Source of the DNA: Promethearchaeota archaeon
Lineage (GTDB): Archaea; Asgardarchaeota; Sifarchaeia; Borrarchaeales; Borrarchaeaceae
Assembly (NCBI GenBank): GCA_048940375.1
Contig: JBHLOP010000019.1
Span: 1-15,844, forward strand
DNA length: 15,844 nucleotides
Reading direction: 5' to 3'
This document shows positions 1 through 14,304 of this stretch, piece after piece. Numbering within the stretch: position 1 is the first letter of the stretch; each line of letters starts with the position of its first letter. A program made the position numbers and the translations under genes. The notes below the pieces were generated by a model that did not search any database, was not told the origin of the DNA, and saw only the letters and a list, made by a program, of their open reading frames with translations.

Positions 1-208
1 AGTTGTCAATTTGAGCCTTATTTTTTCTCTTTATCTCTAAAGAGAAGAAAAAGGAAACCAGTATCTCTTTTCTTAAATTCCCAATTTAAATAAACTTTCC
101 TTTTCGATGTACAACAAAGCCAAGACTTTAGATAAAAATTCGAGATTTTTGTAAAAAATTAAGAATTGATTCTTTAATATCTTAGATAGACTATTTTTTT
201 GCTTAGAA

Positions 209-244
209 TCAAAAAATTCAAAAAAAGCGATAAAAAAAGTGAAA
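209..244 (-). terminator. T-run region (on the minus strand) downstream of the SPFH gene
   Basis: A-runs aaaaaattcaaaaaaagcgataaaaaaag on + read as repeated T-runs on the minus strand, 60-100 nt after the 306..1877 stop codon. Confidence 0.4.
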
Positions 245-305
245 GATTTGATTTTATGAGATTTCTCACGAAGATCGTTCTTTTATGAGGTTGGAACACT
301 ATTAT

Positions 306-1877
306 TTAACCTAACTGTGCTTTAAGCTCTGCAATCTCCTTCTTCAGGCGTGCAACTAAATCTGAGTGCTTCTCCTCGGAAATTTTTCCATCAAGGAGTA
401 GATCATCTGCTTTTTCTATTCTCTCTTGACGTTCTTTGATCTCCTTTTTAATTTTACCTGCATCAGTAGATGTCGTTGGAACCGTTGATGGACCTGCGAC
501 AGGAACGACACCAGCTCCAGTGACAATTGTTGGTGACGCATCAATTGAGACACCTTTCTTACCTAGTTCGCGATATCCTTCAGCTTTTACAAGTTCTTCA
601 ACGCTTATACCCGCTTCTTTGGCTCTTAAATACAACTCTGTGTCAACACCTTTCATTGTAGCATACTTTTCAGCCTCTATTCTTGCAAGTGCTTCATCTT
701 CAGCAGTTGATGAAAGTGCTTCATATTTTGCTTTCATAGCTTCTAATTCTGCGAGTTTTAACTCCTTTTCTTTTTCAAGCATCGCAAGTTCTGTTTCAGA
801 ACTTATCATTTTCGCCTTGGCAGTTTTTTGTATAACTAATTCTTCGTATTCTTCGGCTCCAGCGATGGTTGCTATTTCAAGTCGCGCTAACTGGACTCCC
901 CAATCGCCAAATGTATTCTCCGCGATTACCTTTGCTTTAGTGGAAATACCTTCGCGATTTGAAAACACATCTTCTAATGGATAGGTGGATACTGTTTGAG
1001 TTACAATTCCTCTCATTGAGTCCTTTGCCCAGTTATCAAACTCATCAGGCGCTAATTTCTCTTTACCACCAATAAAGTTTTGAACAAGGCGTTTAGGGTC
1101 ACTAATTTTGATGTATGCAGTGCCTGAGGCACCGATCTTTACCTTATCTTGTGTATAAATACGTTTAGGAACTCCCCAAGGAATTTTATATTCGCGTGTA
1201 TTTACCCATACGATTTCAGTGCCAATTAGTGCACTGTAGAGTTTTCTTACATCCATTCCGCTGAAGATTTTGTGAATTATTCCTTTAGAATCCTCTTTCC
1301 TCCACGCTTTGTCCAGTTTCCCTGCAGCTTCTAATTCTTGTGCACGTGCTCTTGCTTTTTCTTCAATCTTTCTCTCTTCTTCTGGTATTAAATCATATAC
1401 CCCTGCGCTTAATTCTCCTATCAAAGTTCCCTGTTTATAAAACAATGCTTTTTCATACGATCGTACAACAAATCCTCGAATGGGCTCCTGAAGTCTCGCA
1501 TCATATCCACACTTCTTACAGAAAGCCTGACCTGCTTTTATTGTAGAAACTCGTTCGGTAGGTATATCTGCTCCACATTTTTTACAGAATTTTTGTCCTT
1601 TATTTGCAAGTGTTCCACATTGTGGACATTTCCTTGCTTCTGCTAGTTTTCTACATCCCGGGCAGTGCATATCATAAATTGGCGGAGCATTCATAATATC
1701 TTCATACGTAAGACGATGTATTATTCCAGGATAAACTTGGTGGTTCCAAATGTATGTATATCGATCTCTACCCCATTCTTTTTCAATTACCTCATCAGCG
1801 TCTAATCCTTTGTCTGCTACTCTTTTAAGATCCTTGTCTACTTTTCTAGTTCTAAACCATTCTTTAATCGATGACAT
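306..1877 (-). CDS. SPFH (band 7/stomatin-flotillin-like, YdjI-type) domain protein with an N-terminal zinc-ribbon array, a coiled coil and a short C-terminal helical tail
   Basis: 523-aa ORF. Zinc-ribbon cysteines HCPGC..KCPQCG..FCKKCG..FCKKCG. SPFH-like segment 'GTEIVWVNTREYKIPWGVPKRIYTQDKVKIGASGTAYIKISDPKRLVQNF...' followed by a Glu/Lys/Ala-rich coiled coil. C-terminal 'ADDLLLDGKISEEKHSDLVARLKKEIAELKAQ' resembles SHOCT-like tails. Confidence 0.8.
   Translation of the reverse strand: MSSIKEWFRTRKVDKDLKRVADKGLDADEVIEKEWGRDRYTYIWNHQVYPGIIHRLTYEDIMNAPPIYDMHCPGCRKLAEARKCPQCGTLANKGQKFCKKCGADIPTERVSTIKAGQAFCKKCGYDARLQEPIRGFVVRSYEKALFYKQGTLIGELSAGVYDLIPEEERKIEEKARARAQELEAAGKLDKAWRKEDSKGIIHKIFSGMDVRKLYSALIGTEIVWVNTREYKIPWGVPKRIYTQDKVKIGASGTAYIKISDPKRLVQNFIGGKEKLAPDEFDNWAKDSMRGIVTQTVSTYPLEDVFSNREGISTKAKVIAENTFGDWGVQLARLEIATIAGAEEYEELVIQKTAKAKMISSETELAMLEKEKELKLAELEAMKAKYEALSSTAEDEALARIEAEKYATMKGVDTELYLRAKEAGISVEELVKAEGYRELGKKGVSIDASPTIVTGAGVVPVAGPSTVPTTSTDAGKIKKEIKERQERIEKADDLLLDGKISEEKHSDLVARLKKEIAELKAQLG
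1506..1664 (-). other. Zinc-ribbon array (residues ~72-124) in the SPFH protein
   Basis: Four CxxC motifs (CPGC, CPQC, CKKC, CKKC) within about 53 residues, N-terminal to the SPFH-like segment. Confidence 0.8.
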
Positions 1878-1894
1878 TTCTCTCCATCCTCTCC

Positions 1895-2362
1895 TTATCC
1901 TTTATATAGGCTTGGCACATACCAAGCTGTGCCTCCCGCATAACTAGAATCACGTCGGGTAACTCCTTCTTGCTCAAGAGTTTGTAACGCTCGCATTACA
2001 CGTTCATTGTCCCATTGTGTTTTTATCATCAGATCTTCAAGGGAAATATATCCATTTGAGGTTGCAGCCAGCTCAAGTACTGTTCGTGAATCTTCTGTCA
2101 TGCCTACGGGCACAAATTCAACAAGTTTTAAGCCTGAAGGTTTCAATACATGCATATCAGCTATCATTCCAGCTTTATCTAATTTCTTAACTGCTTTTTC
2201 AATATCATTTACATTGAATTCTATGTCTAATCTACGTTCACGCATTTTCATGTAAAGATCTGCTAGCGAACAGATGCCTCCTGTTTCATTTTTGATCATA
2301 TCTTTGAGCTTAAGAATTTCTTCACCAAGTTTCTCATAATAGTCGCCTTTGCCAAAAATTCT
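1895..2362 (-). other. EAP30 domain segment (residues ~233-387, two winged helices)
   Basis: Collinear motif match to Vps22/SNF8 described for the parent CDS. Confidence 0.82.
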
Positions 2363-3058
2363 TGGCTTTTTCGCTTTTTCGTCTTCCATTGCTTTTCTAA
2401 CTTCTCTGACTTTGCCCTTCTCTCGATGTCTCATTTGCCATAATTTTTCGTCAAGTACTTCCTCGATGTTTTTGTATACGCCATGCCATTTGCCAGGAAC
2501 CCACTGATAGATGTGTTCGGCTTCTGTCACGCCCAACAGCAAATCTTGTCTCTTCTTGAAGAGACTCACAACATCATCCATATCACTTTTTATTTCCCGG
2601 AAGAACTTCTTTCCGTCTTCTGCATTTCCATCTTCTACCTTTGGAAGTACCGTTTCTCGTAATATTTCGTTCATTGCATCGATTTCAAATAAAGTAAGCA
2701 TATCTATTCCTACAAGATTTTTGAACATATCGGACTCCAACGTTACATCAAATTTTGTTGGGCCTCCAGCAGTTTTACTTTGTTTATGAAGTTTTTCGAC
2801 CTCAAAAATGGGAGCCATCAACTCAACGTCTTGTTGAAATCTGTTCAATTTCTTTCTTAATCTTTCGCCTAACTTTAATACATCATCATTACCTAAGTCT
2901 ACTGAAGCTTTCTGGATCTCTCCTAATAGCTCATCTGAGCTTTTTAAACTATTTAACATCTTTTCTTTTAAGACGCGATCATAGTTTTCTCGCATCTCCT
3001 TCCTCCAGCCAGGCTTAATCCATTTGAAATAATTCTTAATTTTTCTAAGCCTTTCCAT
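1895..3058 (-). CDS. ESCRT-II Vps22/SNF8-like protein: C-terminal EAP30 tandem winged-helix domain after a ~230-aa mostly helical N-terminal region
   Basis: The C-terminal 155 residues run 'FGKGDYYEKLGEEILKL...NETGGICSLADLYMKMRERR...VNDIEKAVKKLDKAG...LKLVEFVPVGMTEDSRTVLELAATSNGYISLEDLMIKTQWDNERVMRALQTLEQEGV...AWYVPSLY'. This follows the eukaryotic SNF8/EAP30 pattern, remembered as GVGDFYYELG..GG.ITLEEL..DDLIRAIKKL..VP.ELN.D.TVVL.LA..NGYVT..E....L.W..ERA...L..L..EGL...YW.P.LF. Motif recognition only. Confidence 0.86.
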   Translation of the reverse strand: MERLRKIKNYFKWIKPGWRKEMRENYDRVLKEKMLNSLKSSDELLGEIQKASVDLGNDDVLKLGERLRKKLNRFQQDVELMAPIFEVEKLHKQSKTAGGPTKFDVTLESDMFKNLVGIDMLTLFEIDAMNEILRETVLPKVEDGNAEDGKKFFREIKSDMDDVVSLFKKRQDLLLGVTEAEHIYQWVPGKWHGVYKNIEEVLDEKLWQMRHREKGKVREVRKAMEDEKAKKPRIFGKGDYYEKLGEEILKLKDMIKNETGGICSLADLYMKMRERRLDIEFNVNDIEKAVKKLDKAGMIADMHVLKPSGLKLVEFVPVGMTEDSRTVLELAATSNGYISLEDLMIKTQWDNERVMRALQTLEQEGVTRRDSSYAGGTAWYVPSLYKG

Positions 3059-3090
3059 AGGTCACACTCCTTTCTTTCATTTTTTTTAAT

Positions 3091-4575
3091 TTAAACCGAC
3101 TTTTGTCTTTCAAGTTTCATACTTAATGTGCTTCCACAAGTTGGACACTTGAATTTCTCAGGCCCTACCCAATCCACGCTTTCCTCGCTCAAAGGCGCAC
3201 CACATTCTGAACATGTGGTGGGAACGGTCTTTATTAGTATTACTTCTTCTTTCTTCTCGATAACTCTCTCCTTAATGATCATCTCAGTTGGCTTGGAATT
3301 ATTCCCTTCGGAAACTGCAGCGGCTGTAACTGGATCTACGATATCCATATATGCTCTACCAATCTCAATAGTAAGTGGCTCGCTGTAAATAGCAAGTTTT
3401 TGAGATTTAAAGATTTTCGGGGCATTAAAAAGAATCTCAGTAGGATTCAAGGAATATAATCCACCAATTGTTGGTGTAACTTTAAAATCAACAGCTCTAT
3501 ACGTTCCAGGACGAATTCTTTCTATGTGCTTCCCATTACCATTTCCCACTTCAAATTCAGACGGGAAATCTGTTTTGACCTCAATATTAGTAACTTCAAA
3601 ATCAGATTTATTACGAATATCTACCGAAATAAGCCCTTCGTGGTCAATATATAACGCCTTAGCTTCTCTATCTATCTCAATGTTAGGTAGAACGAACACA
3701 GGTGTAAGATTAACATCAGTAGATGTTGGTTGAAAATTCCCTGCAGTTATAGTTGCTTGTGCACGCATCGCAAACACACCAACTTCACCTGTTGGCAGCT
3801 CTAATTCTATCTCTTCAGTTTCATCTTTCCTTAATGAAACTGAAATATCTTCATTCAAAACAGGGAAGTGCAATTTCAACTCAGTAGGTAGTTTTGCTGT
3901 GATAGTCAATGTGAGCGGAATCTGATTACCGATTTTGACAGCTTCAACAGTTTCAACATTTATACTTGGCAAGACTCTCAAAATTGGGATCCCCATACGA
4001 TTGCATACCGGGCAACCGGTATTCACAAGATTTCTGTTGCATAATACTGGATGGGCTCCAGTTTGAATCAACTTCTTCTTATTCAGTTGATTGAAGATGT
4101 CGGCTAGGTTATCTTCAACGATTTTTGGTTTTGATTTTGAAGATTCCCACCCACAAGCTACACAAGTAACTTTATAATCAGGAGCAGCTGAATCAAAGAC
4201 GCCTCCTTTTTGAAATTGCGTGAGAACCAATTGCTTTCCACATTGGGGACACAATGAGTTTAATATAGTCTGACATTTAGCATTAGGTGGCGCTGATTGA
4301 AATCCTACCCCACAGGATGGACAGAATGAAATTTTTTTCGATGCACAATGTTTGCAAAACACGCCGTGTTCAGGACAGTAAAAATTAGCGAATTTACCGC
4401 AGTGTACACAAATATAATTTGCTAATTTTTCTTTTTTCTTTCCTTCTTCAATAAGTAGCATTGAAGCCCTTGTTGTTGGAGTTGGTTTAGAGAGAGAAAA
4501 TAGTGGTGAACCACAAAAAGTACAGAATCTTAGACCTTCTCTTAGTGTTCTTCTGCATCTAGGACATGCCGGCAA
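3091..4575 (-). CDS. Zinc-finger-rich protein: N-terminal double zinc ribbon and B-box-like cluster, central beta-sandwich (Ig/CARDB-like) region, C-terminal zinc ribbon
   Basis: 494-aa ORF with TTG start (caa at 4573-4575 on +) and a good Shine-Dalgarno GGAGGA (complement of tcctcc, 4584-4589). CPRC..CTFCG; 'CVHCGKFANFYCPEHGVFCKHCASKKISFCPSCG'; CPQC..CVAC; CPVC; C-terminal CSEC..CPTC. The middle region alternates hydrophobic beta strands ('QIPLTLTITAKLP..', 'GLISVDIRNKSDFEVTNIEVKTDFPSEFEV'). Confidence 0.75.
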   Translation of the reverse strand: MPACPRCRRTLREGLRFCTFCGSPLFSLSKPTPTTRASMLLIEEGKKKEKLANYICVHCGKFANFYCPEHGVFCKHCASKKISFCPSCGVGFQSAPPNAKCQTILNSLCPQCGKQLVLTQFQKGGVFDSAAPDYKVTCVACGWESSKSKPKIVEDNLADIFNQLNKKKLIQTGAHPVLCNRNLVNTGCPVCNRMGIPILRVLPSINVETVEAVKIGNQIPLTLTITAKLPTELKLHFPVLNEDISVSLRKDETEEIELELPTGEVGVFAMRAQATITAGNFQPTSTDVNLTPVFVLPNIEIDREAKALYIDHEGLISVDIRNKSDFEVTNIEVKTDFPSEFEVGNGNGKHIERIRPGTYRAVDFKVTPTIGGLYSLNPTEILFNAPKIFKSQKLAIYSEPLTIEIGRAYMDIVDPVTAAAVSEGNNSKPTEMIIKERVIEKKEEVILIKTVPTTCSECGAPLSEESVDWVGPEKFKCPTCGSTLSMKLERQKSV

Positions 4576-4583
4576 TTTTCTAG

Positions 4584-4589
4584 TCCTCC
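4584..4589 (-). promoter_or_regulatory. Shine-Dalgarno site for the 3091..4575 gene
   Basis: GGAGGA on the minus strand, 8 nt upstream of the TTG start. Confidence 0.7.
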
Positions 4590-4615
4590 AGTTTTTTCCG
4601 ATGATTTTTTAGTTT

Positions 4616-4637
4616 TAGTACCACAATAGTGGTACTA
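4616..4637. promoter_or_regulatory. Perfect inverted repeat TAGTACCAC-aata-GTGGTACTA, possible operator or 5'-UTR hairpin
   Basis: 9-bp perfect arms with a 4-nt spacer, about 41 bp upstream of the TTG start of 3091..4575 and just downstream of a TATA-like element. Confidence 0.6.
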
Positions 4638-4662
4638 CACATATACTACTACTACATGGCGG

Positions 4663-4670
4663 TATTTAAA
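4663..4670 (-). promoter_or_regulatory. Candidate archaeal TATA box for the minus-strand three-gene operon
   Basis: TTTAAATA on the minus strand. A start site about 25 nt downstream would fall near 4640, immediately before the palindrome. Confidence 0.45.
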
Positions 4671-5009
4671 AATTTTGAGAAAACTCTCCGCATTTCAATT
4701 ATAATTGTTTCAATCAAGCGAAAAACATGTCCTGGTGAATATTTAGAATGTTACATTTATCACAAAGGTTTTTATTTTACATTAGTTAATTTGCGACAAA
4801 TAACTTAATGTTGGATTGCTTAACTGCCGAAATTATATCGATTTATTGACAGATGCGCTTTCATCTTCAGAATTATCTAGTCAATTAGCTCGAAAAAGTC
4901 TTTTCCAAAATTTTAGATATTTATGTCGGACGCAACATTTCTATAGGAGTTATTCAACTCTTAAAATTAGAACTACTATAAAATCAGATATAAAAGAAAA
5001 TTTGGAGAT

Positions 5010-7979
5010 ATGACAAAAATGGGAGTTTCATCGTACTTTTCAGGAAGAAAAATAATTGTATACATTATAACGGCGTTTGTCGCATGGTTTGCTTGGCTGG
5101 ATAATATCATTGACTACTTATATTTCCTCGGTCTCTACGCAGATACATGGCCTTACTACGATGTCTTCACTTTCCCCGACTTCGCATATAATGTCACGCT
5201 TGCACTACCGCTCATCGTTTTTGTAATGACGTTGTTGCCAGAAGCTGAAAAATGGAAAAATATTTTGCGTACCATGGGTATCATTGTACTAATTACTGCG
5301 TTGCTAATGTTAGTATCAACAATAAATCTTGTTCTTTACAGACCTTTCATTACGGCTATTGTTTTAATTGTCATTGCAGGGATATTCGCACTTCTTAATT
5401 ATCCACTTAAGGATAAGACCTTTTGGGAACATGAACCTTGGCAGTGGGCAGTTAATTGGTTCGCGTGTGGAGTTTTTTTTGCATTAATTGGCTTTCTGTT
5501 ACCTCCAGCTGTATTTACTGGATCCCTTGAATATCCAGTTCTTATAGGACCTTACGTCTGGGCTTTAGTGTTCGCTGTTGGCGGTATACTAGCCTTAATT
5601 CTCGGTTTCATCATGCCAGTTGAAACTGGGCTTGTTGAAGGCTTAATTGTTGGTCTGTTCGGTGCAATAGGTACGCTTCTCGGTTTGTGGCTATTTTTCT
5701 GGGATACGGAAGTTATACCTCCTGATGGATGGTACATTCAAATCTTAGTTCTATTCATAGTTTCTGGCTTTGCTGGCGGGTTCTTCAACCAGTTTAACTT
5801 CACAAAATATATCATGAATTCGTTTCAAGACTTTATCAAGATGAAACTAGTGTTAGCTCTATGGATCGTTGCATTACTTGGAGCACTCGTATCGTATTTT
5901 GCTATCGCCATCTATTTCCCAGGCGGTGTTCAAAACATAGTTTTACGTCAGGTGCTGATATTTCTCGTTCCGTCACTCATTGTAACACCCATAGCTTTTC
6001 GTAGCGCCCATTTCTGGCAAGGACTGCTCATTGGTATCACTACGAGCCTTTCATATTTCAGTGTAATCATTCAAGGCGATCCATCTCTTGAGATCATCGG
6101 ACTTATTGGCTTTCCATTTGTTCCATTAATTCGCTATGCACCTCCACAGATATCCATCTATGTGGTCAATGGTTTGCTACTCGTGTTAGCAGCACTGTGG
6201 GGTGGTCTATGGGGTTCAGTTGGAAACTACTTTACAATGGCATATACAGAGATTCCTGAGGAAGGAGATGTAGCAAAGAGATTCAGAACATCATATCTAT
6301 TTCGTGACCTATGGTCAAACTACTTCATTCATGGAAAAAATGTTGAGCCGGAATTTGAGAAGACTGAACAATTCAAGTTAGATTTGGATAAAATTTTAGA
6401 TATTGATTTTGATCTAAAACAGACTGACTTACCAAGATTCGGTGAATACGTTTCTTTTCGCTACATGGACAGAAGTAAGCACTGGGAGACGGTTCCAAAG
6501 CCTTTGAAAACGATTGGTGTCCAACCGATAGAGGACACAGACAAAGCTAGAGTTGAATACAATAATAAGCACATTGGAGACTTTTATGATCCAAAAGTTC
6601 TCGCTGACAAATATTCCCCTGTATGGAGTCCAATGAATCTAGTATTTCAGCGTACGCTAGTTACTGCGATGCGTCCAATCATTTATGTGCTCTTGGTTAT
6701 CACGTTGATACTTGTAGGCTATAGTATTTACGTTAATTTCACAGTAATTGGCGGTGGAATCGAATTTCTAGGACTTGCAGGTGCTCAGATAGTTGTTCTC
6801 ATCTTCTTATTCTTCTTTATGTTCAAGTGGTACGGTTTATTCGAACAAACAGTAAACGAGCGACCAGAAGCTTCATCAAGTTTCTTAATCGTTGCTTTAA
6901 TCATTGTAGTGATTATGCTATATATCACCTACACAGTGAACAGCCTTGGGACGTTCATTGTCACAGAGGCTAACGAAGACCTCATCAGATTCGAGACTAA
7001 CGGACTGTATATAATGCTTCTCATAAACTTTATCTTAGGCATAGGATCTGTTCAAGTACTCGGCTCGGAAAATATGAACCTCTATTGGTATGATAAGAGA
7101 CCAGAAGTTTTTCCAATGCAATCTCAAGAAGATGCGCCTGTTTGGCTTAAGGGGGACCAGTATTGGGTATTTAGGAACCTCTTCTGGTGGCCATTCGAGC
7201 TCACAGTTGGCAGTAAAGGACTTGAACACGAAGATTGGGAACGGATAGAACTGTGGGTGAATGCAAATACAGGCAAACCAGAGTGGATTATCTCAGATTA
7301 TCATTGGCGTGAGTTATGGTATAGGGTGCCAGAACTAGACGAAGAAATTATGATTAAGGTCACATTTGCAACGAACTTTCATACACCAATACCTTCAGTT
7401 CTCCGAAAGGCTACATACGACAAATTTGTAGCGCAATTCGAGGGTGCTGGTGCAGCGAGTGCGGTAATTAAATATGCAATTGGTGCAGCGAAATCAGGTA
7501 TCGGTCGAGCGTTTGACTCAATTGGCTCTTCTTTAGGACTAAAGACTAAGGGCGAAAAGGAGAGAGACGCAAAAACTACTGATGGAATGAAGGCTCGTAC
7601 AAAAGTGCTTGGGAAATATTTTGTTGACGTTGGAGGTCCAGCTAAAGGGATCTGTGGAAAACAAATGGCAGCAACAGACTTTAACTTCTTTAGATATCCC
7701 TATGGATGTGCAAGTACTAAGGATATCGGAACTGGTGGCGCAATAGACATTAAATACTATTATCGTGAAAAAGATTTTGTTCCACCGATCAAGGAACCTG
7801 GCACAGGATTCAATTTAAAAGCTGAGAAGAAAGACGGTCTTGGTTACAAAATTTCAGTAGACGAAACAGCCCCGCAACTGTGCATGGATTGTGGTGAACC
7901 GTATAATGTCATGGAAACTGTAATTTGCCCGGCTTGTGGCTCCAACAATGAAGCGGCGTATAGAATGCCAATCGAGTAA
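5010..7979 (+). CDS. Large multi-spanning membrane protein with two transmembrane blocks, soluble domains and a C-terminal zinc ribbon
   Basis: 989-aa ORF with many hydrophobic segments in the first ~390 aa and again between ~545 and 700 aa. C-terminal 'CMDCGEPYNVMETVICPACG'. Possible starts at 5010 or at the in-frame ATG 5019; GGAG at 5004-5007. Confidence 0.85.
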   Translation: MTKMGVSSYFSGRKIIVYIITAFVAWFAWLDNIIDYLYFLGLYADTWPYYDVFTFPDFAYNVTLALPLIVFVMTLLPEAEKWKNILRTMGIIVLITALLMLVSTINLVLYRPFITAIVLIVIAGIFALLNYPLKDKTFWEHEPWQWAVNWFACGVFFALIGFLLPPAVFTGSLEYPVLIGPYVWALVFAVGGILALILGFIMPVETGLVEGLIVGLFGAIGTLLGLWLFFWDTEVIPPDGWYIQILVLFIVSGFAGGFFNQFNFTKYIMNSFQDFIKMKLVLALWIVALLGALVSYFAIAIYFPGGVQNIVLRQVLIFLVPSLIVTPIAFRSAHFWQGLLIGITTSLSYFSVIIQGDPSLEIIGLIGFPFVPLIRYAPPQISIYVVNGLLLVLAALWGGLWGSVGNYFTMAYTEIPEEGDVAKRFRTSYLFRDLWSNYFIHGKNVEPEFEKTEQFKLDLDKILDIDFDLKQTDLPRFGEYVSFRYMDRSKHWETVPKPLKTIGVQPIEDTDKARVEYNNKHIGDFYDPKVLADKYSPVWSPMNLVFQRTLVTAMRPIIYVLLVITLILVGYSIYVNFTVIGGGIEFLGLAGAQIVVLIFLFFFMFKWYGLFEQTVNERPEASSSFLIVALIIVVIMLYITYTVNSLGTFIVTEANEDLIRFETNGLYIMLLINFILGIGSVQVLGSENMNLYWYDKRPEVFPMQSQEDAPVWLKGDQYWVFRNLFWWPFELTVGSKGLEHEDWERIELWVNANTGKPEWIISDYHWRELWYRVPELDEEIMIKVTFATNFHTPIPSVLRKATYDKFVAQFEGAGAASAVIKYAIGAAKSGIGRAFDSIGSSLGLKTKGEKERDAKTTDGMKARTKVLGKYFVDVGGPAKGICGKQMAATDFNFFRYPYGCASTKDIGTGGAIDIKYYYREKDFVPPIKEPGTGFNLKAEKKDGLGYKISVDETAPQLCMDCGEPYNVMETVICPACGSNNEAAYRMPIE
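7881..7940 (+). other. C-terminal zinc ribbon of the membrane protein
   Basis: C-x2-C-x13-C-x2-C (CMDCGEPYNVMETVICPAC). Confidence 0.75.
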
Positions 7980-7980
7980 A

Positions 7981-8007
7981 AGACTTTTTTTGTCTACTCT
8001 TTTTTTT
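7981..8007 (+). terminator. Poly-T terminator region after the membrane protein gene
   Basis: AGAC-TTTTTTT-GTCT mini-hairpin followed by a run of 8 T, directly after the stop codon. Archaeal transcription commonly terminates at T-runs. Confidence 0.5.
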
Positions 8008-8036
8008 ATTTTGAAAGAAAAGATGAAGGTTAAGAA

Positions 8037-8807
8037 ATGACTCAACTGCCTTGGATTATAGCTCACCGAGGAGCGTCAGGTTATTATCCAGAAAATACTC
8101 TTCCATCTTTCTTAGGAGCAGTTGAATTGGGTGCAACTTGTGTTGAAATGGACATTCAACCAACAGCGGATAAAAAATTGGTCTTATTCCACGATAATAC
8201 TATGGAACGTATTCTTGGTGTTCCAAAAAAGATCACTGACTTATCATGGCAAGAAGTTATCCAATATGATGTAGGTCGTTGGAAAGCCCCTAAGTGGGAG
8301 GGAACAAAGATTCCGCTTCTTAGGGACGTCTTGGAAAAACTTCCACGATCAATGAAATTGAATTTAGAGCTCAAATATTATTCTCCGAAGGATGATTGGT
8401 TTGAAGGATCAGTTCTTGAAGTTGCCTTGCAATATGATCTTCCAAATAGAGGTTATCTAGCTATTAAACATATTGAAACCATTTCCTTCATAAAAGAACT
8501 TGCTCCTGATTGTCCGTTGGGCTTATTACAGAAAAAAAGAACCCCAAAAGAAACATTCGATCTTTGCTGTAAGTGGGATCTTCCATTTGTTCAAATTAGA
8601 AAAACAGCGTTGACCAGTGAATGGATTGACCGATTTCATGAACAAGGTGTCAAAGTTAATTTCTTCTATTCTGACGATCCTAAGGAAATGAAACATCTTT
8701 TAAAAGATCTTAAAATTGACGGAATTCTAACGAATTATCCGGATAGGACAGTGAAAGTGTTCCAAGAGCTTGGCTTGCCCCTTACAAAACATCAAGATCC
8801 CACGTAA
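8037..8807 (+). CDS. Glycerophosphodiester phosphodiesterase (GDPD) family protein
   Basis: 'IAHRGASGYYPENTLPSFLGAVELGATCVEMDIQPTADKKLVLFHDNTMERI' is the canonical GDPD HR(G)..PENT..E.D....D...V..HD signature; 'GILTNYPDRTVK' near the C-terminus. Confidence 0.92.
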   Translation: MTQLPWIIAHRGASGYYPENTLPSFLGAVELGATCVEMDIQPTADKKLVLFHDNTMERILGVPKKITDLSWQEVIQYDVGRWKAPKWEGTKIPLLRDVLEKLPRSMKLNLELKYYSPKDDWFEGSVLEVALQYDLPNRGYLAIKHIETISFIKELAPDCPLGLLQKKRTPKETFDLCCKWDLPFVQIRKTALTSEWIDRFHEQGVKVNFFYSDDPKEMKHLLKDLKIDGILTNYPDRTVKVFQELGLPLTKHQDPT

Positions 8808-8931: not shown

Positions 8932-10296
8932 ATGGAAAAAATTCTTGCCTGCATTGATGGAGAACACTACTTGCCTGTCACGAAGGCAGCGATAGACAAG
9001 TTAAATGATTTGCCAAATCAAGAAGTCGTTGCCGCGTTATTTCTGGGAGGTACCGAGAAAATTGGAGATTTTGATGAAGTTAAACGCTATCTACAATTAC
9101 CAATTTATTTTCTTGATTATAAACAAAACTTTCACGAATTTTTACGAAAAATAATGAAGCAGGTCAAGATAAATTCTGTCTTCGATCTTAGTGATGAACC
9201 TGTAGTGACTTCTCAAGATCGAATGAATTTTGCGTGTGCCGCTTTATTTGAAGGATGTAGTTATAAAGGCGCAGACTTTCAATTTACTCCAATAGAATTT
9301 TTAGACGCTAAAAAACCTGTAATAAGTGTCATTGGTACAGGAAAGCGCGTTGGGAAAACGGCTGTTGCAGGTTACATCGCACGTGTTATTAAAGAAACGG
9401 AATGGACTCCTTGTATACTTACAATGGGTAGAGGAGGTCCAGAAAACCCTGAAGTGATCCGAGGTGACAAATTAATTATCGATGCAGAATCTCTTCTTAA
9501 AGTTGAACAACAAGGTAAACATGCTGCTAGTGATTATTGGGAAGATGCTCTTACTAGTCGAATCATTACAGTTGGTTGTAGAAGGTGCGCTGGAGGATTA
9601 GCTGGAACACCTTATTTAGATAATGTAAAAGAAGGCATCAAAATCGCTGAAAAATTATCTGTCGATTTAATCATTGCAGAAGGTAGTGGACCAACCATTC
9701 CACCAGTAATGGCACAGTCATTTATTATCATAATTGGTGCACAACAACCTCTTTCTAACGTCAAATACGTTTTGAATCCTTATAGAATAAAACTTTCCGA
9801 ACTTGCAATTATAACGAATTGCGAACTTCCCCTTGCAACTGATGATAAGATTCAAGAAATCTGCACCACTGTCAAAGCAATAAATCCGCAGATCAAGTTA
9901 TGTTGTACCAAGTTTCGCCCAAAAGTTTTAGGTGATATTCAGAATAAAACCGTGTTTTATGCAACAACAATGCCTATTGAAATGATGGAAATTGTAGTTA
10001 ACTATTTAGAGCAAAATTACAATTGTAATATAGTTGGAACAAGTGTTTATCTCTCAGATCGTGCAAAATTGAAGGAAGATCTCATGAAATTAGCTGATGC
10101 GGATGTTCTTTTGACAGAACTAAAGGCTGCAGCTGTTGATGTAGCGACTAAGACAGCTCTACAGATAGGAAAGCCAACCATCTATTGTGATAATATACTC
10201 CAAATAGTGGAGCATGTTTACGGAGAAATAAAATCGATTCAAGGACTTGATTCATATCTTATTGAGGTCGCAAATAGGATTGTAAAAGGTAGGTAA
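8932..10296 (+). CDS. cpgS: Cyclic 2,3-diphosphoglycerate synthetase
   Basis: 454 aa. 'MEKILACIDGEHYLPVTKAAIDKL...VVAALFLGGTEKIGD', P-loop 'VISVIGTGKRVGKTAVAGYIARVI', 'TMGRGGPENPEVI', 'LIIAEGSGPTIPPV'. Directly followed by 2-phosphoglycerate kinase, the enzyme that makes its substrate. Confidence 0.88.
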   Translation: MEKILACIDGEHYLPVTKAAIDKLNDLPNQEVVAALFLGGTEKIGDFDEVKRYLQLPIYFLDYKQNFHEFLRKIMKQVKINSVFDLSDEPVVTSQDRMNFACAALFEGCSYKGADFQFTPIEFLDAKKPVISVIGTGKRVGKTAVAGYIARVIKETEWTPCILTMGRGGPENPEVIRGDKLIIDAESLLKVEQQGKHAASDYWEDALTSRIITVGCRRCAGGLAGTPYLDNVKEGIKIAEKLSVDLIIAEGSGPTIPPVMAQSFIIIIGAQQPLSNVKYVLNPYRIKLSELAIITNCELPLATDDKIQEICTTVKAINPQIKLCCTKFRPKVLGDIQNKTVFYATTMPIEMMEIVVNYLEQNYNCNIVGTSVYLSDRAKLKEDLMKLADADVLLTELKAAAVDVATKTALQIGKPTIYCDNILQIVEHVYGEIKSIQGLDSYLIEVANRIVKGR

Positions 10297-10300
10297 AGAA

Positions 10301-11218
10301 ATGAGTTCAAAACATATAATGATCAAAACAGATACTTATGATTATCCTTATAGCAGGGGTTTATTAGCAACACGCATTATGGTAACTGGTCTCGACTTAG
10401 TTGACGCTTACAAAACAGCTGAAGCAATAGCTTTAGAACTGGAACTGCAGGGTATCTGGGAACTTACAGAAGTCGAACTTAATGATCTCGTTAGCGATAT
10501 TCTCGAAAAAGAGGGCAGAAAGCTTCATGCTGCTCGATATCGTAATTTTCTCAAATTTAAAAGTATGTATGAACCTCTGATCATTCTGATCGGTGGTGCT
10601 ACTGGCATTGGTAAGTCTACTATTGCATTGAATTTAGCAGCAAGACTAGCTATTAGCCACATAGTTGGAACGGATACAATCCGAGAAGTCATGCGCAAAG
10701 TATTATCTTCAGAATTGGTCCCTTCATTACATTCGTCCTCATATGCTGCTCACGAATCCATGAAAGAATATGTTAGTCCAATTTACAATAAGGTCGTTGT
10801 GGGATTTGAGGAACAAGCGCGACTCGTTGTTTCGGGAATCGAATCTGTAATTAGTCGTGCGTTAACCGAAGGTATAAGTATTATTGTTGATGGGGTTCAC
10901 ATCTTGCCTTCTATAATGGATCCAAAACTTCTCAAATCACCAAATATTATCCCAGTGTTTCTTCATCTTTCAAACAAGGAAGATCATATGATGAGATTTC
11001 ACGAGCGCGCAAAAACAAAGGTGATGAGAAAGCCACTTGAAGATTATTTAAGTCATTTTGATGGCATTCGAATAATACAGGAACATCTTTCAGAGCAGGC
11101 AAGACTGCATAACATCCCTTTAATTGAAAATATACTAATCGAAACCACCATTAGACAGATTTTGGACATCGTTTTTGAACGCATTGAAATGCTAATAACA
11201 AATCCCCTAACAACTTGA
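10301..11218 (+). CDS. pgk2: 2-phosphoglycerate kinase with N-terminal ATP-cone domain
   Basis: ATP-cone-like N-terminus 'YPYSRGLLATRIMVTGLDLVDAYKTAEAIALELE', Walker A 'IILIGGATGIGKSTIALNLAARL', 'GTDTIREVMRKVLSSELVPSLHSSSYAA', 'GISIIVDGVHILP'. Starts 4 nt after the upstream stop. Confidence 0.9.
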   Translation: MSSKHIMIKTDTYDYPYSRGLLATRIMVTGLDLVDAYKTAEAIALELELQGIWELTEVELNDLVSDILEKEGRKLHAARYRNFLKFKSMYEPLIILIGGATGIGKSTIALNLAARLAISHIVGTDTIREVMRKVLSSELVPSLHSSSYAAHESMKEYVSPIYNKVVVGFEEQARLVVSGIESVISRALTEGISIIVDGVHILPSIMDPKLLKSPNIIPVFLHLSNKEDHMMRFHERAKTKVMRKPLEDYLSHFDGIRIIQEHLSEQARLHNIPLIENILIETTIRQILDIVFERIEMLITNPLTT

Positions 11219-11249: not shown

Positions 11250-12785
11250 TTGGCAAGATTTGTCATTTTCTCAGACTCACATATTACCCATGGTCCAGAA
11301 TTTAATGAAAAAGCCTTTCGAAAAGGTTTAGATTTAATAAGTTCCATAAAGGCAGATTTCTATTTTCACTTAGGCGATATCGTTGAATCAGGAACTCTCG
11401 CAGACTACAAATTAGCTGAAGAACTCTTGCTACCTTTAAAAAACAAGATTTTTTTCATTCCTGGAAATCACGATGCCAGAAACGTAGGAGATCGCCTATA
11501 CGAGGAATTCTATGGAGAGAGGGAATTTGAAATCGAAACAAAAATCGATGGGTCTAAGTTTTATATTACAGGACTAGATAGCTCAATTCCTGATCAGAAT
11601 TCGGGTCGCATGGGGCGTCGAGAGTTACACGTACTTTCGAAAAACTTAAGCCAGTTGGATGATGATGTAATTAAAGTGGTATTTTTCCATCATCATCTTC
11701 TTCCCATCCCAAATACTGGCAGAGAACGTTCTACTATTGATGATGCAGGCGATACATTAAAGATTTTGCTTGCTTATGATGCGGATGTAGTAGTAAATGG
11801 TCATCGACATATTTCCAATGTGTATAGAGTTACAGATGGCGATCATGAGTTAATCACAATTAATAATGGGACCTTTTCGGCAAACAAGACACGATATCGT
11901 GAACTTCACTCCTTCTCAGTTATAGAGGCCACCCGTGAGCAAGTAATAACAAAAAGAATTCAAATTGATACAAACAAAGAAAAGATAACCAAGAAAAAGT
12001 ATCACTATTATCCCGCATTGCATTTTGGCGGCGAAAAACTCGCTCGAATAGTCCATATTTCAGATACACATTTTAGCAAGGGAAGTGAGTTTCAAGAGGA
12101 GACTTATGATAAGGCTGTGGAGTTAATCAATAGGAGTAGAGCGGACGTTGTAGTACATACTGGAGATGTTACAAATGACGCTTATCGATCCAGTTATAGA
12201 ATCGCTGCAGAGAAATTAGCAAAAATCACGTTACCAAAAGTAATTGTGCCAGGACATCGAGATTGCTACGCAATAGGTTGGGATCTCTTTCCAGAGCTTA
12301 TTGGCCCCCTTGATCCTGTATGGGAGTCACCTAACCTTAAAGTAATTGGAATTAATACCAGTTTGCTGGAAGAAGAAATCGGTTCAATGGGGAGATTCCA
12401 ATTACAAAATGTACTTGAAAAAATCTATGCAATAAAGGAACACAAAATTGTGGTTGTCGCTTTTCATCATCATCTCGTTCCAGTTCCTAATACAAAGCAT
12501 GTAGCTTCCCTAACTGATGCTGGTGATACTTTATCTGCACTAGGAAAAAGCGGAGTGGACTTAGTATTGACAGGGCATAAGCATGTCACTTGGTCCGTCC
12601 AAGTTGAAGATGCTGTCATTTCTAACTGTGGATCCCTGTCAAGTTCAAAAGTTCTCTCACTAACTGGCAATGTTTACAATATCATAGACGTATATGAGAA
12701 CGGATTTGTTCAAGTCGATGAAGTATCCCTTGACCAAGATACGCAACGAACTACAGGAAAATTTATGATTCCTGTCCTAAAATGA
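11250..12785 (+). CDS. Tandem-duplicated calcineurin-like metallophosphoesterase (two Icc/CpdA-like domains)
   Basis: TTG start at 11250 preceded by gaggga. Domain 1: FSDSH..GD..GNHD..HHH..GHRH. Domain 2: ISDTH..GD..GHRD..HHH..GHKH. The two halves align along their length. Confidence 0.88.
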   Translation: MARFVIFSDSHITHGPEFNEKAFRKGLDLISSIKADFYFHLGDIVESGTLADYKLAEELLLPLKNKIFFIPGNHDARNVGDRLYEEFYGEREFEIETKIDGSKFYITGLDSSIPDQNSGRMGRRELHVLSKNLSQLDDDVIKVVFFHHHLLPIPNTGRERSTIDDAGDTLKILLAYDADVVVNGHRHISNVYRVTDGDHELITINNGTFSANKTRYRELHSFSVIEATREQVITKRIQIDTNKEKITKKKYHYYPALHFGGEKLARIVHISDTHFSKGSEFQEETYDKAVELINRSRADVVVHTGDVTNDAYRSSYRIAAEKLAKITLPKVIVPGHRDCYAIGWDLFPELIGPLDPVWESPNLKVIGINTSLLEEEIGSMGRFQLQNVLEKIYAIKEHKIVVVAFHHHLVPVPNTKHVASLTDAGDTLSALGKSGVDLVLTGHKHVTWSVQVEDAVISNCGSLSSSKVLSLTGNVYNIIDVYENGFVQVDEVSLDQDTQRTTGKFMIPVLK

Positions 12786-12824: not shown

Positions 12825-14219
12825 TTATTTGTTTTCAAAAAAATCTGCAACTCTAATTTTTGGCGTCTCATAATTAGATAATTCTGCACCAATTGTTTCG
12901 AGTGCAACCGCACTAATATCCCATATGTTCAGTTTATTATTCTCCAAATATTTTTGGAGAATTTTCTTAATCCCTGACGGTTTGGTGAATTTATGTCCAT
13001 CAAAATGGGCAAAAAAAGTATATACGCTGGTACAACTCGGGGTCACTCCACCGTGATTAGCCTTTCTGTAGGTGATGTCATAGCCATATCCTTCATTAGC
13101 TGTTCCGATAACATGTCCAAATTTATCTCGATCATAACCAACATTTTTACCAAAGATTCTCTCTATTTCTTCATATTCAGGAGTAAAATGAACCCAGCGA
13201 TTTGCCTGCATCTTTTTAAGTCGATCAACAAGCTCACATATTTGTTTGTTACGTGTAAGTAATAAGTCTTCGTTAAACCATATTCTGAATCCTCTTCTCC
13301 CATCAGTTGCAATCGCATATTCTTTTTCAGAGAACCCCATTCTTTTTGCAAGTTCGTGAATAGTTGAAGAAATCGGGAATATATGAGGCGTATCAGAATT
13401 TCCATGATCGGTGGTAAGAATGAATAAAGTATCTTCTCCCATTGCAAATAATAGTTCTCTAACCTTTTCAATTGAATTTTTTAATATATCTGCTGCCGTT
13501 AATGATTTTGTACCATCTGTATGAATCGCTTTGTCGGGGCCACCAATTGTTCCTGTAATAACGCTCGGATTATATGTATTAATCAATTCTATGACCTTTT
13601 CGATGAGTACATCATCCATCTCACCGAATTTATCTACCCCTACGTGTTCTCCTCCGAAGATGCGTTGTCTGATTTTCTTGCGTCTTTCATTTAATTCGTC
13701 GAATGGCTCTCTCTTTCCGTTATGATAGATTCCAGAAGGGATTGCAATCTGGTGGAATGGTGAATTAGATGTAGATAAAGACCCATTATCCTTAGTCATT
13801 CGCATATACAGTTGAAGGGTACGTTGCCCTCCCTCATCGCCAGGATCTACGGTTTCCTTTGAAATACCTCCTTCTGAAATACCGCATCCTTTGTTTCCGA
13901 AGCCTAGTAATATCTCTCCTGCATCTTTTAAATCGTCAAAAACAGATCTATATTTCTTAAAAAGGTCTAAGGGGGGGTTTATTACTTTCATTTGCTTAAT
14001 ATCAACAAATCGGTTGCCTACTAGGTTCGTTTCAAATGGCGACAACCTATAACTAAAGGCTACGTGACCTGGTCTTGAGACTGAAAAAATATCTACAAGT
14101 GTGGGGACTTTAAACGCATTATCATCGATATAGTTAAGAAATCCCCCATTAGGAGAGTTAACAGCGGTTTCCCAGCAGTTAATAGCTAATCCATCAATGA
14201 TCACATAGCATAGTTTCAT
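12825..14219 (-). CDS. Alkaline-phosphatase-superfamily (phosphodiesterase / phosphoglycerate-mutase-like) hydrolase
   Basis: 'MKLCYVIIDGLA' start motif, '..DTLFILTTDHGNSD..', '..RKANHGGVTPSC..'. The ORF track extends to 14357, but ATG at 14219 removes the overlap with the upstream gene and has a GGAG just upstream on the minus strand. The first 46 aa of the track ORF look non-native. Confidence 0.62.
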   Translation of the reverse strand: MKLCYVIIDGLAINCWETAVNSPNGGFLNYIDDNAFKVPTLVDIFSVSRPGHVAFSYRLSPFETNLVGNRFVDIKQMKVINPPLDLFKKYRSVFDDLKDAGEILLGFGNKGCGISEGGISKETVDPGDEGGQRTLQLYMRMTKDNGSLSTSNSPFHQIAIPSGIYHNGKREPFDELNERRKKIRQRIFGGEHVGVDKFGEMDDVLIEKVIELINTYNPSVITGTIGGPDKAIHTDGTKSLTAADILKNSIEKVRELLFAMGEDTLFILTTDHGNSDTPHIFPISSTIHELAKRMGFSEKEYAIATDGRRGFRIWFNEDLLLTRNKQICELVDRLKKMQANRWVHFTPEYEEIERIFGKNVGYDRDKFGHVIGTANEGYGYDITYRKANHGGVTPSCTSVYTFFAHFDGHKFTKPSGIKKILQKYLENNKLNIWDISAVALETIGAELSNYETPKIRVADFFENK

Positions 14220-14304
14220 AATATTCTCCAGTATACAAAACAGTATTGCTAAATATTTATCCCTTTCGTCAATTACATAGAAAAAATAAGGGGAAAATAC
14301 CCTG

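Follow-up and report, generated by a model that had tools for sequence, protein, structure and literature searches.

Gene layout and transcription

The DNA analysed here is a stretch of 15,844 nucleotides (contig JBHLOP010000019.1, GenBank assembly GCA_048940375.1; the whole stretch is called the window below) from a metagenome-assembled genome (MAG) of an Asgard archaeon. [quoted passage not shown] Gene A (3091..4575, minus) begins with a TTG start, which is likewise used in the NCBI annotation, and specifies a soluble protein of 494 amino acids with several zinc ribbons and two immunoglobulin (Ig)-like domains. Gene B (1895..3058, minus) encodes 387 amino acids of a long-form Vps22/EAP30 paralogue, called "EAP30L" in the following, and gene C (306..1877, minus) an SPFH protein of 523 amino acids without a transmembrane segment. 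The sequence of A is the same as that of NCBI protein ACFFA5_02065, from a "Promethearchaeota archaeon" MAG; an exact-sequence look-up of B returned no database record. Near-identical loci with all three genes are present in Candidatus Borrarchaeum weybense, B. yapensis and one Borrarchaeota MAG. The window is Candidatus Borrarchaeum-type Asgard DNA, with a guanine plus cytosine content of about 38%.

A first-pass annotation, made from the sequence only, had described three minus-strand genes separated by 32 and 17 nt and had considered them very likely co-transcribed. The layout was confirmed with the coordinates of the list of open reading frames (ORFs): the three genes are co-directional, with gaps of 32 nt between A and B (3059-3090) and 17 nt between B and C (1878-1894). 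Co-transcription is supported by several features. Shine-Dalgarno-like motifs are found 6-10 nt ahead of the starts (GGAGG for A, GGAGTG for B, GGAGAGG for C), no T-run was found in either intergenic gap, oligo-T runs follow about 65-100 nt beyond the stop of C (205..245, minus; likely an archaeal terminator region), and order and spacing of the three genes are the same in all Borrarchaeum-type loci. The simplest reading of this arrangement would be a tri-cistronic operon. Its presumed promoter should be located in the divergent intergenic region (4576..5009), where GGAGG precedes the TTG of A by 9 nt and where an A/T-rich candidate for an archaeal promoter, TTTTTAAATA, was read by eye about 90 nt upstream. 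A sigma-70 promoter scan remained at background level, the sigma-70 model being irrelevant for an archaeon; tRNA or Rfam elements were not found in the window.

A reading of the three genes as an anti-phage defence system was rejected, since no known defence-system protein model was matched: comparison with the PADLOC models gave only sub-threshold similarities to winged-helix and zinc-ribbon proteins.

Proteins B and C

The assignment of domains in the first-pass annotation (zinc-finger and beta-sandwich, ESCRT-II-like, SPFH) stood up to examination with Pfam, AlphaFold2 (AF2) and Foldseek. By its sequence relationships, B is a paralogue of Vps22. Residues 228-385 (1904..2377, minus) form a predicted Vps22-type tandem winged-helix core: the Pfam family EAP30/Vps36 (PF04157) was matched at residues 228-370 with 5.4e-16 and 59.4 bits (cutoff 26.8), human SNF8 (3cuq_A) was matched by residues 233-385 at 5.4e-16, and in the Foldseek list Vps22 (2zme_A/3cuq_A, 1.7e-8) came first, followed by Vps36 (1.4e-5) and then a UFL1-DDRGK1 chimera. 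The winged-helix core is 40-44% identical to the canonical Asgard Vps22 proteins of 240 amino acids, one of which (P0006) adjoins Vps23(UEV) and Vps28 in locus L001.

The N-terminal part of B is of a different kind. The AF2 model, with a predicted local distance difference test (pLDDT) score of 52, is helical from about residue 1 to 230; shallow alignments limited the confidence of the models for A and B, which served only for secondary structure and domain boundaries. Residues 24-199 (2462..2989, minus) make up a helical domain specific to this family and without a match to a known family; a profile of the N-terminal domain retrieved only designed helical bundles and noise from PDB and Pfam. 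A leave-clade-out hidden Markov model (HMM), built from the N-terminal domains of proteins outside Borrarchaeum, detected residues 24-199 of B with 50 bits and an E value of 1.8e-11 (calculated with one million sequences as notional database size), and the N-domain HMM had no match among unrelated ORFs of the fetched loci. The N-terminal domain is thus a genuine signature of the family. The very N-terminus is strongly basic and aromatic, with nine Lys/Arg among the first 25 residues.

Protein C contains an SPFH/Band 7 domain at residues 137-371 (765..1469, minus), as recognized by Pfam with Band_7 (PF01145; 3.9e-17, 63.3 bits, cutoff 23.6) and Band_7_1 (PF13421; 8.5e-12, 45.6 bits, cutoff 24). 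Among sequences of solved SPFH proteins the best match, to stomatin, reached only E = 0.002. Ahead of the domain, residues 43-57 (1707..1751, minus) carry the motif IWNHQVYPGIIHRLT, which is common to the SPFH partners of EAP30L proteins (consensus W[ND]H..PG[IL][IV]W[RK][FI]P). It is followed by two zinc ribbons (residues 71-125; 1503..1667, minus; Pfam zinc ribbons at 71-105), an insertion before the SPFH domain which is present in Borrarchaeum only. The remainder (residues 372-523; 309..764, minus) consists, as judged from the alignment, of an E/K/A-rich tail of helical, coiled-coil-like character, a Pro/Thr/Val linker and, at the C-terminus, a SHOCT-like helix (DGKISEE...). The SHOCT match itself was obtained with the Jordarchaeal orthologue, whose motif aligns with C, and most SPFH partners have a SHOCT-like end. 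An N-terminal transmembrane or hairpin anchor of the stomatin, HflK/C or flotillin type was sought in C and not found, and no transmembrane segment was detected, the highest 19-residue Kyte-Doolittle window being 1.31 (threshold 1.6); the seven orthologues of C which were checked were all below the threshold except one at 1.65.

Conservation of the gene pair

B and C constitute a real and widely conserved two-gene module, which is the core of the operon. An exhaustive HMMER search with B yielded 272 relatives, most of them matching the winged-helix core only. Relatives over the full length were found in five cluster representatives (P0022, P0031/P0169, P0047, P0098/P0189, P0084) with identities of 20-30%, and in all five of these distant clusters an SPFH/Band_7 gene is next downstream on the same strand. 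The clusters include a Jordarchaeaceae MAG, a clade to which NCBI gives the label "Bathyarchaeota" (RLI44292.1), which could not be verified, and three further lineages. These long forms came from the HMMER search; word-index searches with A, B and C returned close relatives and two canonical Vps22 proteins only, and a locus scan of GTDB representatives with a reduced alignment of B matched only three genomes, all of Borrarchaeum.

The same association was obtained when starting from the other partner. Comparison of the SPFH-partner alignment with metagenome contigs gave 18 loci, 14 of them with an adjacent EAP30 gene, which was directly upstream in 12 and directly downstream in two; in one locus the two genes were 2 kb apart on opposite strands, and three loci were truncated or weak matches. 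In the 14 paired loci, the two genes overlap by up to 17 nt or are separated by up to 80 nt. When loci are compared in pairs, the identity of the EAP30 proteins follows that of the SPFH proteins (16 loci, r = 0.95; r = 0.85 if only pairs with less than 60% identity are counted), and the genes flanking the pair differ completely between lineages. Since the adjacency recurs in at least eight deeply diverged lineages with otherwise unrelated flanks, it is far beyond chance. No description of EAP30 paired with Band 7, or of an Asgard Vps22-like-SPFH module, was found in the searchable literature.

In loci L031/L032 (5194-8811) the order of the pair is reversed and the proteins are enlarged: a 717-amino-acid SPFH protein, in which residues 274-456 form the SPFH domain, comes before an EAP30 protein of 464 amino acids.

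Winged-helix domains commonly bind DNA, and B could be thought of as a DNA-binding regulator of an SPFH stress gene, in which case the operon would be a membrane-stress unit without ESCRT-like protein chemistry. The EAP30 protein of one relative (L020; 350 amino acids, with a different N-terminus) indeed has weak matches to TrmB and to winged helix-turn-helix (wHTH) families, and a reaction to membrane stress is described for SPFH and PspA systems (PMC7619361). The domain which B matches at 5e-16 is, however, the protein-binding tandem winged helix of Vps22, at the identity to canonical Asgard Vps22 proteins given above, and a conserved N-terminal domain of 175 amino acids together with tight co-evolution with the SPFH protein fits a structural partner better. 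A regulator would thus appear to be highly improbable, the least probable of the explanations treated here.

Protein A

The N-terminal region of A (residues 1-191; 4003..4575, minus) is rich in cysteines, with about five predicted zinc sites and a Pfam match to DZR (double zinc ribbon) at 1.4e-9. The protein contains 23 cysteines, with CxxC pairs at 4/18, 56/67(CPEH)/74/85, 109/138, 188 (with C179) and 455/477; the cysteines of residues 1-191 are conserved in all homologues which cover this region, and the C-terminal zinc ribbon (residues 455-480; 3136..3213, minus) is invariant in all homologues. Residues 211-405 (3361..3945, minus) are predicted as two tandem Ig-like beta-sandwich domains on the basis of AF2, Foldseek and weak Pfam matches. 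The AF2 model (pLDDT 54 overall) has the sandwiches at 211-305 and 315-405 with pLDDT values of 60-84; Foldseek against PDB gave only generic tandem beta-sandwiches (transglutaminase C-terminal barrels, the SPD-2 domain of CEP192), and the sub-threshold Pfam matches TRAP_beta (0.002) and NPCBM_assoc are both Ig-like. With a profile of A nothing was found in PDB and nothing useful in NCBIfam.

Within the cysteine-rich region, residues 56-88 (nt 4312-4410) have the spacing C-x2-C-x7-C-x2-H-x3-C-x2-C-x7-C-x2-C, which is more like a short cross-brace, RING or B-box-like, than simple ribbons; there was no Pfam match to RING or B-box for these residues.

Homologues of A were only 75-100% identical in the word-index search, and the HMM of A matched Borrarchaeum-type loci only. 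As far as can be judged from this distribution, A is a Borrarchaeum-specific addition to the B-C core. Gene-order conservation of the three genes, on which the idea of a joint function in the first-pass annotation depended, is therefore divided: the B-C pair is widely conserved, whereas the result for A comes closer to a refutation. Perhaps the functional link is confined to B and C, with A just carried on their transcript or serving another purpose. Its restriction to Borrarchaeum-type loci would be in agreement with this, as would the presence of different genes upstream of the pair in other lineages. On the other hand, A is directly upstream, at a distance of 32-47 nt, in all Borrarchaeum-type loci, including those with identities as low as 76%; C gained its zinc ribbons in the same lineage as A; and a protein with zinc ribbon and TRAP_beta-type Ig domain is a component of the Meth_adaptin and of kinase-containing ESCRT loci (see below). 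A functional link of B and C only is considered rather unlikely, but a serious contender.

Gene neighborhoods

The first-pass annotation had noted the lack of canonical ESCRT and ubiquitin genes. This holds true for the window, where a Pfam scan of the ten ORFs of at least 200 amino acids (shorter ORFs being left out) detected none of the families ESCRT-III, Vps4, Vps25, Vps23, Vps28, E1, E2 and ubiquitin; and for relatives, where none of these families is on record for the called genes within 10 kb on either side of the operon in B. weybense (L002), a second MAG (L003) and a Joint Genome Institute contig.

Ubiquitin-type enzymes are neighbors of the pair in two other lineages. In L017 (451-4051) the genes for a JAB/MPN protein (6.8e-11), EAP30L, SPFH and a UQ_con E2 (3.3e-16) follow each other on one strand. 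In L020 (1581-7041; metagenome contig Ga0315533_1000009, 314 kb) a co-directional series of a ThiF E1 (5.5e-50), a Prok-JAB protein and a UFC1-like E2 (4.8e-6, above the Pfam cutoff) leads up to the EAP30 and SPFH genes. The connection to ubiquitin-like cargo, which had been suggested earlier, gains independent support from these neighbors.

Other neighborhoods contain further winged-helix proteins. A divergent protein of 1,260 amino acids with matches to E3_UFM1_ligase (1.3e-8 in L010) and DDRGK winged helices is present in L010 and L025, and UFL1/DDRGK-like proteins with multiple winged helices adjoin the pair in L010 and L029. The latter locus (3-8325) comprises genes for a Ser/Thr kinase which carries Ig-like domains of the TRAP_beta and CARDB types, an FHA and zinc-ribbon protein, the SPFH protein, a winged-helix protein similar to UFL1, EAP30L (encoded on the opposite strand), and a CHAT peptidase; Vps4 or ESCRT-III were not seen in it. 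Its kinase and FHA content resembles that of the kinase- and FHA-containing archaeal ESCRT loci described in PMC10936438. In L008 a PCI and zinc-ribbon protein is encoded just downstream of the pair. The surroundings of the pair thus repeatedly include ubiquitin-type enzymes, additional winged-helix proteins, zinc ribbons and Ig domains of the TRAP_beta type, but in different proteins.

In Borrarchaeum, one flank of the operon consists of genes for a divergent membrane protein of 989 amino acids, GDPD, a protein resembling cyclic 2,3-diphosphoglycerate (cDPG) synthetase and a P-loop kinase-like protein; the other flank is a cluster of ribosomal-protein, eIF6, prefoldin and FtsY genes. The 989-amino-acid protein (5010..7979, plus) is polytopic, divergent from the operon and conserved in this position in Borrarchaeum loci only. 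It has about 15 predicted transmembrane helices and a soluble C-terminal region of about 300 amino acids, which ends in a CxxC...CxxC zinc ribbon, and it matched no family in Pfam or NCBIfam. A role as membrane anchor for the soluble trio is a matter of speculation.

Some of these neighbors are reminiscent of the UFM1 pathway, and the pair might then be part of a membrane platform for UFM1 or another ubiquitin-fold modifier, with B and adjoining winged-helix proteins as UFL1/DDRGK1-like scaffolds and the SPFH protein as base, possibly acting on ribosomes or translocons. The UFC1-like E2 directly upstream of the pair in L020, the E3_UFM1_ligase and DDRGK matches in L010 and L029 and the UFL1-DDRGK1 chimera in the Foldseek list of B could be explained in this manner, and also the ribosomal cluster which the Borrarchaeum operon abuts. 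Yet the UFL1/DDRGK matches reflect generic similarity of winged-helix repeats and B is clearly closest to Vps22, from which the chimera is separated in that list by Vps36; the ribosomal neighborhood is limited to Borrarchaeum, and no UFM1-like gene was identified. Such a platform is very improbable.

Loci L034 (963-4523) and L027 (1038-4545) each have three co-directional genes ahead of the pair, with lengths that are similar in the two loci (about 540, 313 and 325 amino acids), none of which matched a Pfam family above threshold. In L034, weak matches were to Prominin and DUF2207_C for the protein of about 540 amino acids and to coiled-coil-type families for that of about 313 amino acids.

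Other genes of the window

Two adjacent plus-strand genes of the window (8932-10296 and 10301-11218) resemble those for cyclic 2,3-diphosphoglycerate synthetase and 2-phosphoglycerate kinase. The Pfam family CpgS_N was matched by the first gene only in relatives and not in the window copy, and the second gene had weak P-loop matches (AAA_18, Zeta_toxin). The pathway for the thermoprotectant cyclic 2,3-diphosphoglycerate is best known from methanogens, and a gene pair of this type in an Asgard MAG is notable. The following gene (11250-12785, plus) encodes 511 amino acids with two tandem calcineurin-like metallophosphoesterase domains and is kept beside the cDPG genes in relatives. Two listed minus-strand ORFs (12825-14357 and 14305-15708) have 53 nt in common. 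As the relative in B. weybense was called at 467 amino acids, the phosphodiesterase-like gene probably begins at an internal start; the upstream gene of the two is a strong match to DUF711 (6.6e-149).

In B. weybense (L002, 21318-21488), about 7 kb from the operon, a protein of 1,336 amino acids begins, in which DEAD/ResIII/Helicase_C and Cas1 domains are combined to an unusual helicase-Cas1 fusion.

Proposed function

The "membrane-remodelling" role and the "adaptor complex recruiting ESCRT" of the first-pass annotation are functions which we infer, and they can be worded as follows. By comparison with SPFH proteins of solved structure, C would probably assemble into a ring or cage at the cytoplasmic side of the membrane, using its coiled-coil and SHOCT-like tail, and B would dock on this assembly through its family-specific helical N-terminal domain. 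The tandem winged-helix core of B would stay free for contacts of the Vps22 type, i.e., dimerisation with itself or with Vps22 and binding of Vps25, and through Vps25 a contact with ESCRT-III encoded elsewhere in the genome could be made. B and C together would form a membrane-microdomain platform, which receives clients tagged with ubiquitin-type modifiers. For Borrarchaeum, additional binding of cargo or partners could be provided by the zinc ribbons in C and A and by the Ig-like domains of A; modules of these kinds serve as adaptors for cargo or partners in other archaeal ESCRT loci. Attachment to the membrane could be brought about by the SPFH domain, by the N-terminus of B with its basic and aromatic character, or by the 989-amino-acid membrane protein. 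For this proposal as a whole, an SPFH ring or cage at the membrane with B docked by its N-domain and presenting a Vps22-type surface, collection of tagged clients and additional binding by A, the considerations for and against appear about evenly balanced, which makes it the most likely of the explanations; a hand-over to Vps25 and to ESCRT-III encoded elsewhere would be plausible.

Several observations weigh against it. Genes for ESCRT-III, Vps4, Vps25, Vps23 or Vps28 were not seen beside the pair among the neighbors examined in about 30 loci; one aggregated scan of neighbors covered the best 25 of 43 matched families, so that a weak Snf7 match could have escaped. Neighbors of the E1, E2 and JAB type occur in only two of about eight lineages, and a search for small ubiquitin-like ORFs ending in G or GG, near these genes and in the window, gave no credible candidate. 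Transmembrane segments were predicted in none of the three proteins, which makes membrane association an assumption. Confidence in the AF2 models of A and B is low (pLDDT 52-54). Finally, A is restricted to one genus-level lineage, and it is thus its position in the operon which places it in the functional unit.

The main competing explanation is a stand-alone SPFH microdomain or quality-control system which works without ESCRT-III. In this case B would have been recruited away from ESCRT-II as a dedicated partner of the SPFH protein, serving as cap, regulator or membrane tether in place of NfeD or membrane partners, and the ubiquitin-type enzymes would mark clients for turnover, similar to erlins; the eukaryotic erlin SPFH complex works with an E3 ligase. 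The lack of ESCRT-III and Vps4 among the neighbors would be expected here, the pair is a tight two-gene unit with no NfeD gene seen beside it, and JAB and CHAT peptidases are encoded near the pair in some loci. What speaks against it is the identity of 40-44% which the core of B still has with canonical Asgard Vps22, suggesting that interaction surfaces of the Vps22 type were retained; in addition, the only published set of SPFH, winged-helix and Ig/zinc-ribbon proteins, Meth_adaptin, includes Vps4 and ESCRT-III. A system independent of ESCRT-III is therefore rated as rather unlikely. If the pair did function in this manner, winged-helix proteins of the ESCRT-II type would have been reused for other membrane scaffolds.

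In the proposal of a B-C platform which presents a Vps22-type surface, a second Vps22 paralogue locked with an SPFH protein is a concrete candidate for the way in which archaeal ESCRT-II finds its membrane site or its cargo. The recurring pair, sometimes beside ubiquitin-type enzymes, points toward a so far undescribed connection of protein tagging with scaffolds of the membrane, close to the origins of eukaryotic cells. It has a parallel in eukaryotic connections between SPFH proteins and ubiquitin, which are known from erlins and from flotillin endocytosis. The pair should be experimentally tractable, as the proteins are soluble.

Comparison with known systems

Two-gene units of an SPFH protein and a dedicated partner are known from stomatin-NfeD and HflK/C operons, and oligomerisation by coiled coils would be expected in the pair as in these systems. 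C differs in having neither a transmembrane segment nor a hairpin anchor, and no NfeD or FtsH partner. The YdjGHI-PspA system is similar to the pair in that a Band_7_1-type SPFH protein without transmembrane segment depends on partner proteins, one of which, YdjG, contains zinc ribbons. Its partners are membrane proteins and not Vps22-like, and PspA is in its operon, whereas no ESCRT-III is encoded in the trio operon. According to the work of Scholz et al. 2021, as cited in PMC10936438, the transmembrane-less SPFH protein YdjI of Bacillus subtilis tethers PspA, which belongs to the ESCRT-III superfamily, to the membrane. SPFH-like baskets at the membrane's inner face in one Asgard archaeon were described in a preprint (bioRxiv 10.1101/2025.11.06.686947).

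The canonical ubiquitin-ESCRT cluster of Asgard archaea contains Vps23-UEV, Vps28, Vps22, Vps25, ESCRT-IIIA/B, Vps4, ubiquitin and E1/E2 (Hatano et al. 2022, PMC9192718). In the loci examined, the genes for Vps23, Vps28, Vps25, ESCRT-III and Vps4 were never beside B, which differs from canonical Asgard Vps22 by an additional N-terminal domain of about 200 amino acids and by the constant SPFH partner. Hatano et al. 2022 reported just one gene of the Vps22/36 type in each Asgard genome and found no Vps36; an undiscovered partner for the monomeric Vps22 of Odinarchaeota was raised as a possibility (PMC9192718).

Like B, eukaryotic Vps36 is a Vps22 paralogue with a large N-terminal extension, a helical region and tandem winged helices, and its extension is a membrane- and cargo-binding one. 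The GLUE domain of eukaryotic Vps36 binds phosphatidylinositol 3-phosphate and ubiquitin. For yeast Vps36, zinc fingers in the extension which bind ubiquitin and Vps28 are mentioned in the description given in PMC10936438. Sequence and fold place B nearer to Vps22 than to Vps36, and the N-terminal domain of B is predicted to be all-helical and not of the GLUE/PH type. Nevertheless, EAP30L might be the second ESCRT-II stalk subunit of some Asgard archaea, i.e., a counterpart of Vps36 which forms heterodimers with canonical Vps22 and whose N-terminal domain docks ESCRT-II on SPFH cages without transmembrane segments, so that microdomains with cargo tagged by ubiquitin-type modifiers become the starting sites of ESCRT budding. 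This is an improbable suggestion at present; if it were true, it would represent an ancestral, cargo-defined formation of vesicles, older than targeting based on phosphoinositides.

The closest resemblance is to the Meth_adaptin ESCRT system of Methanomicrobia, for example in Methanosalsum zhilinae (WP_013898571-578; Makarova et al. 2024, mBio, PMC10936438). This locus encodes ESCRT-III, Vps4, a 399-amino-acid protein with coiled coil and C-terminal wHTH, a 469-amino-acid protein with zinc ribbon and "adaptin (TRAP-beta) appendage", a divergent SPFH protein with coiled coil and zinc ribbon, ProX, and an adaptin and GOLD protein (PMC10936438); the SPFH protein was classified as arCOG15283 and the zinc-ribbon/"TRAP-beta" Ig-like protein as arCOG15284 (PMC10936438). 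Kinases with Ig-like repeats and FHA proteins are present in other archaeal ESCRT loci (PMC10936438). The trio mirrors three of the Meth_adaptin architectures, SPFH, winged-helix and zinc-ribbon/Ig, the likeness being one of architecture only. The winged-helix and zinc-ribbon/Ig genes of Meth_adaptin are adjacent and co-directional, as are A and B, and C, with its zinc ribbons (71-125), SPFH domain (137-371) and helical tail, resembles the Meth_adaptin SPFH protein with coiled coil and zinc ribbon, again by architecture only.

There are also distinct differences. Vps4, ESCRT-III, ProX and the GOLD-domain protein of Meth_adaptin are all missing from the Borrarchaeum trio locus, and the SPFH gene is divergent in the former and directly downstream of the winged-helix gene in the latter. 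In B the tandem winged helix is truly of the Vps22 type, unlike the description of its Meth_adaptin counterpart, and in A two beta-sandwiches and no TBP/platform subdomain were detected, compared with the adaptin appendage of Ig-like and TBP/platform subdomains in Meth_adaptin. A bridge to the wHTH protein of Meth_adaptin was sought in the cluster names recovered for ten EAP30 matches of 347-408 amino acids and not found, as none of these names indicated a methanogen. Since Borrarchaeota are included in the list of Vps4 proteins used for a tree in PMC10936438, Vps4 is encoded elsewhere in this lineage. The B-C module is a variant within the known class of archaeal ESCRT-associated accessory systems, and with it the contextual link between SPFH proteins and ESCRT, as seen in methanogens, is carried over to the closest relatives of the eukaryotes.

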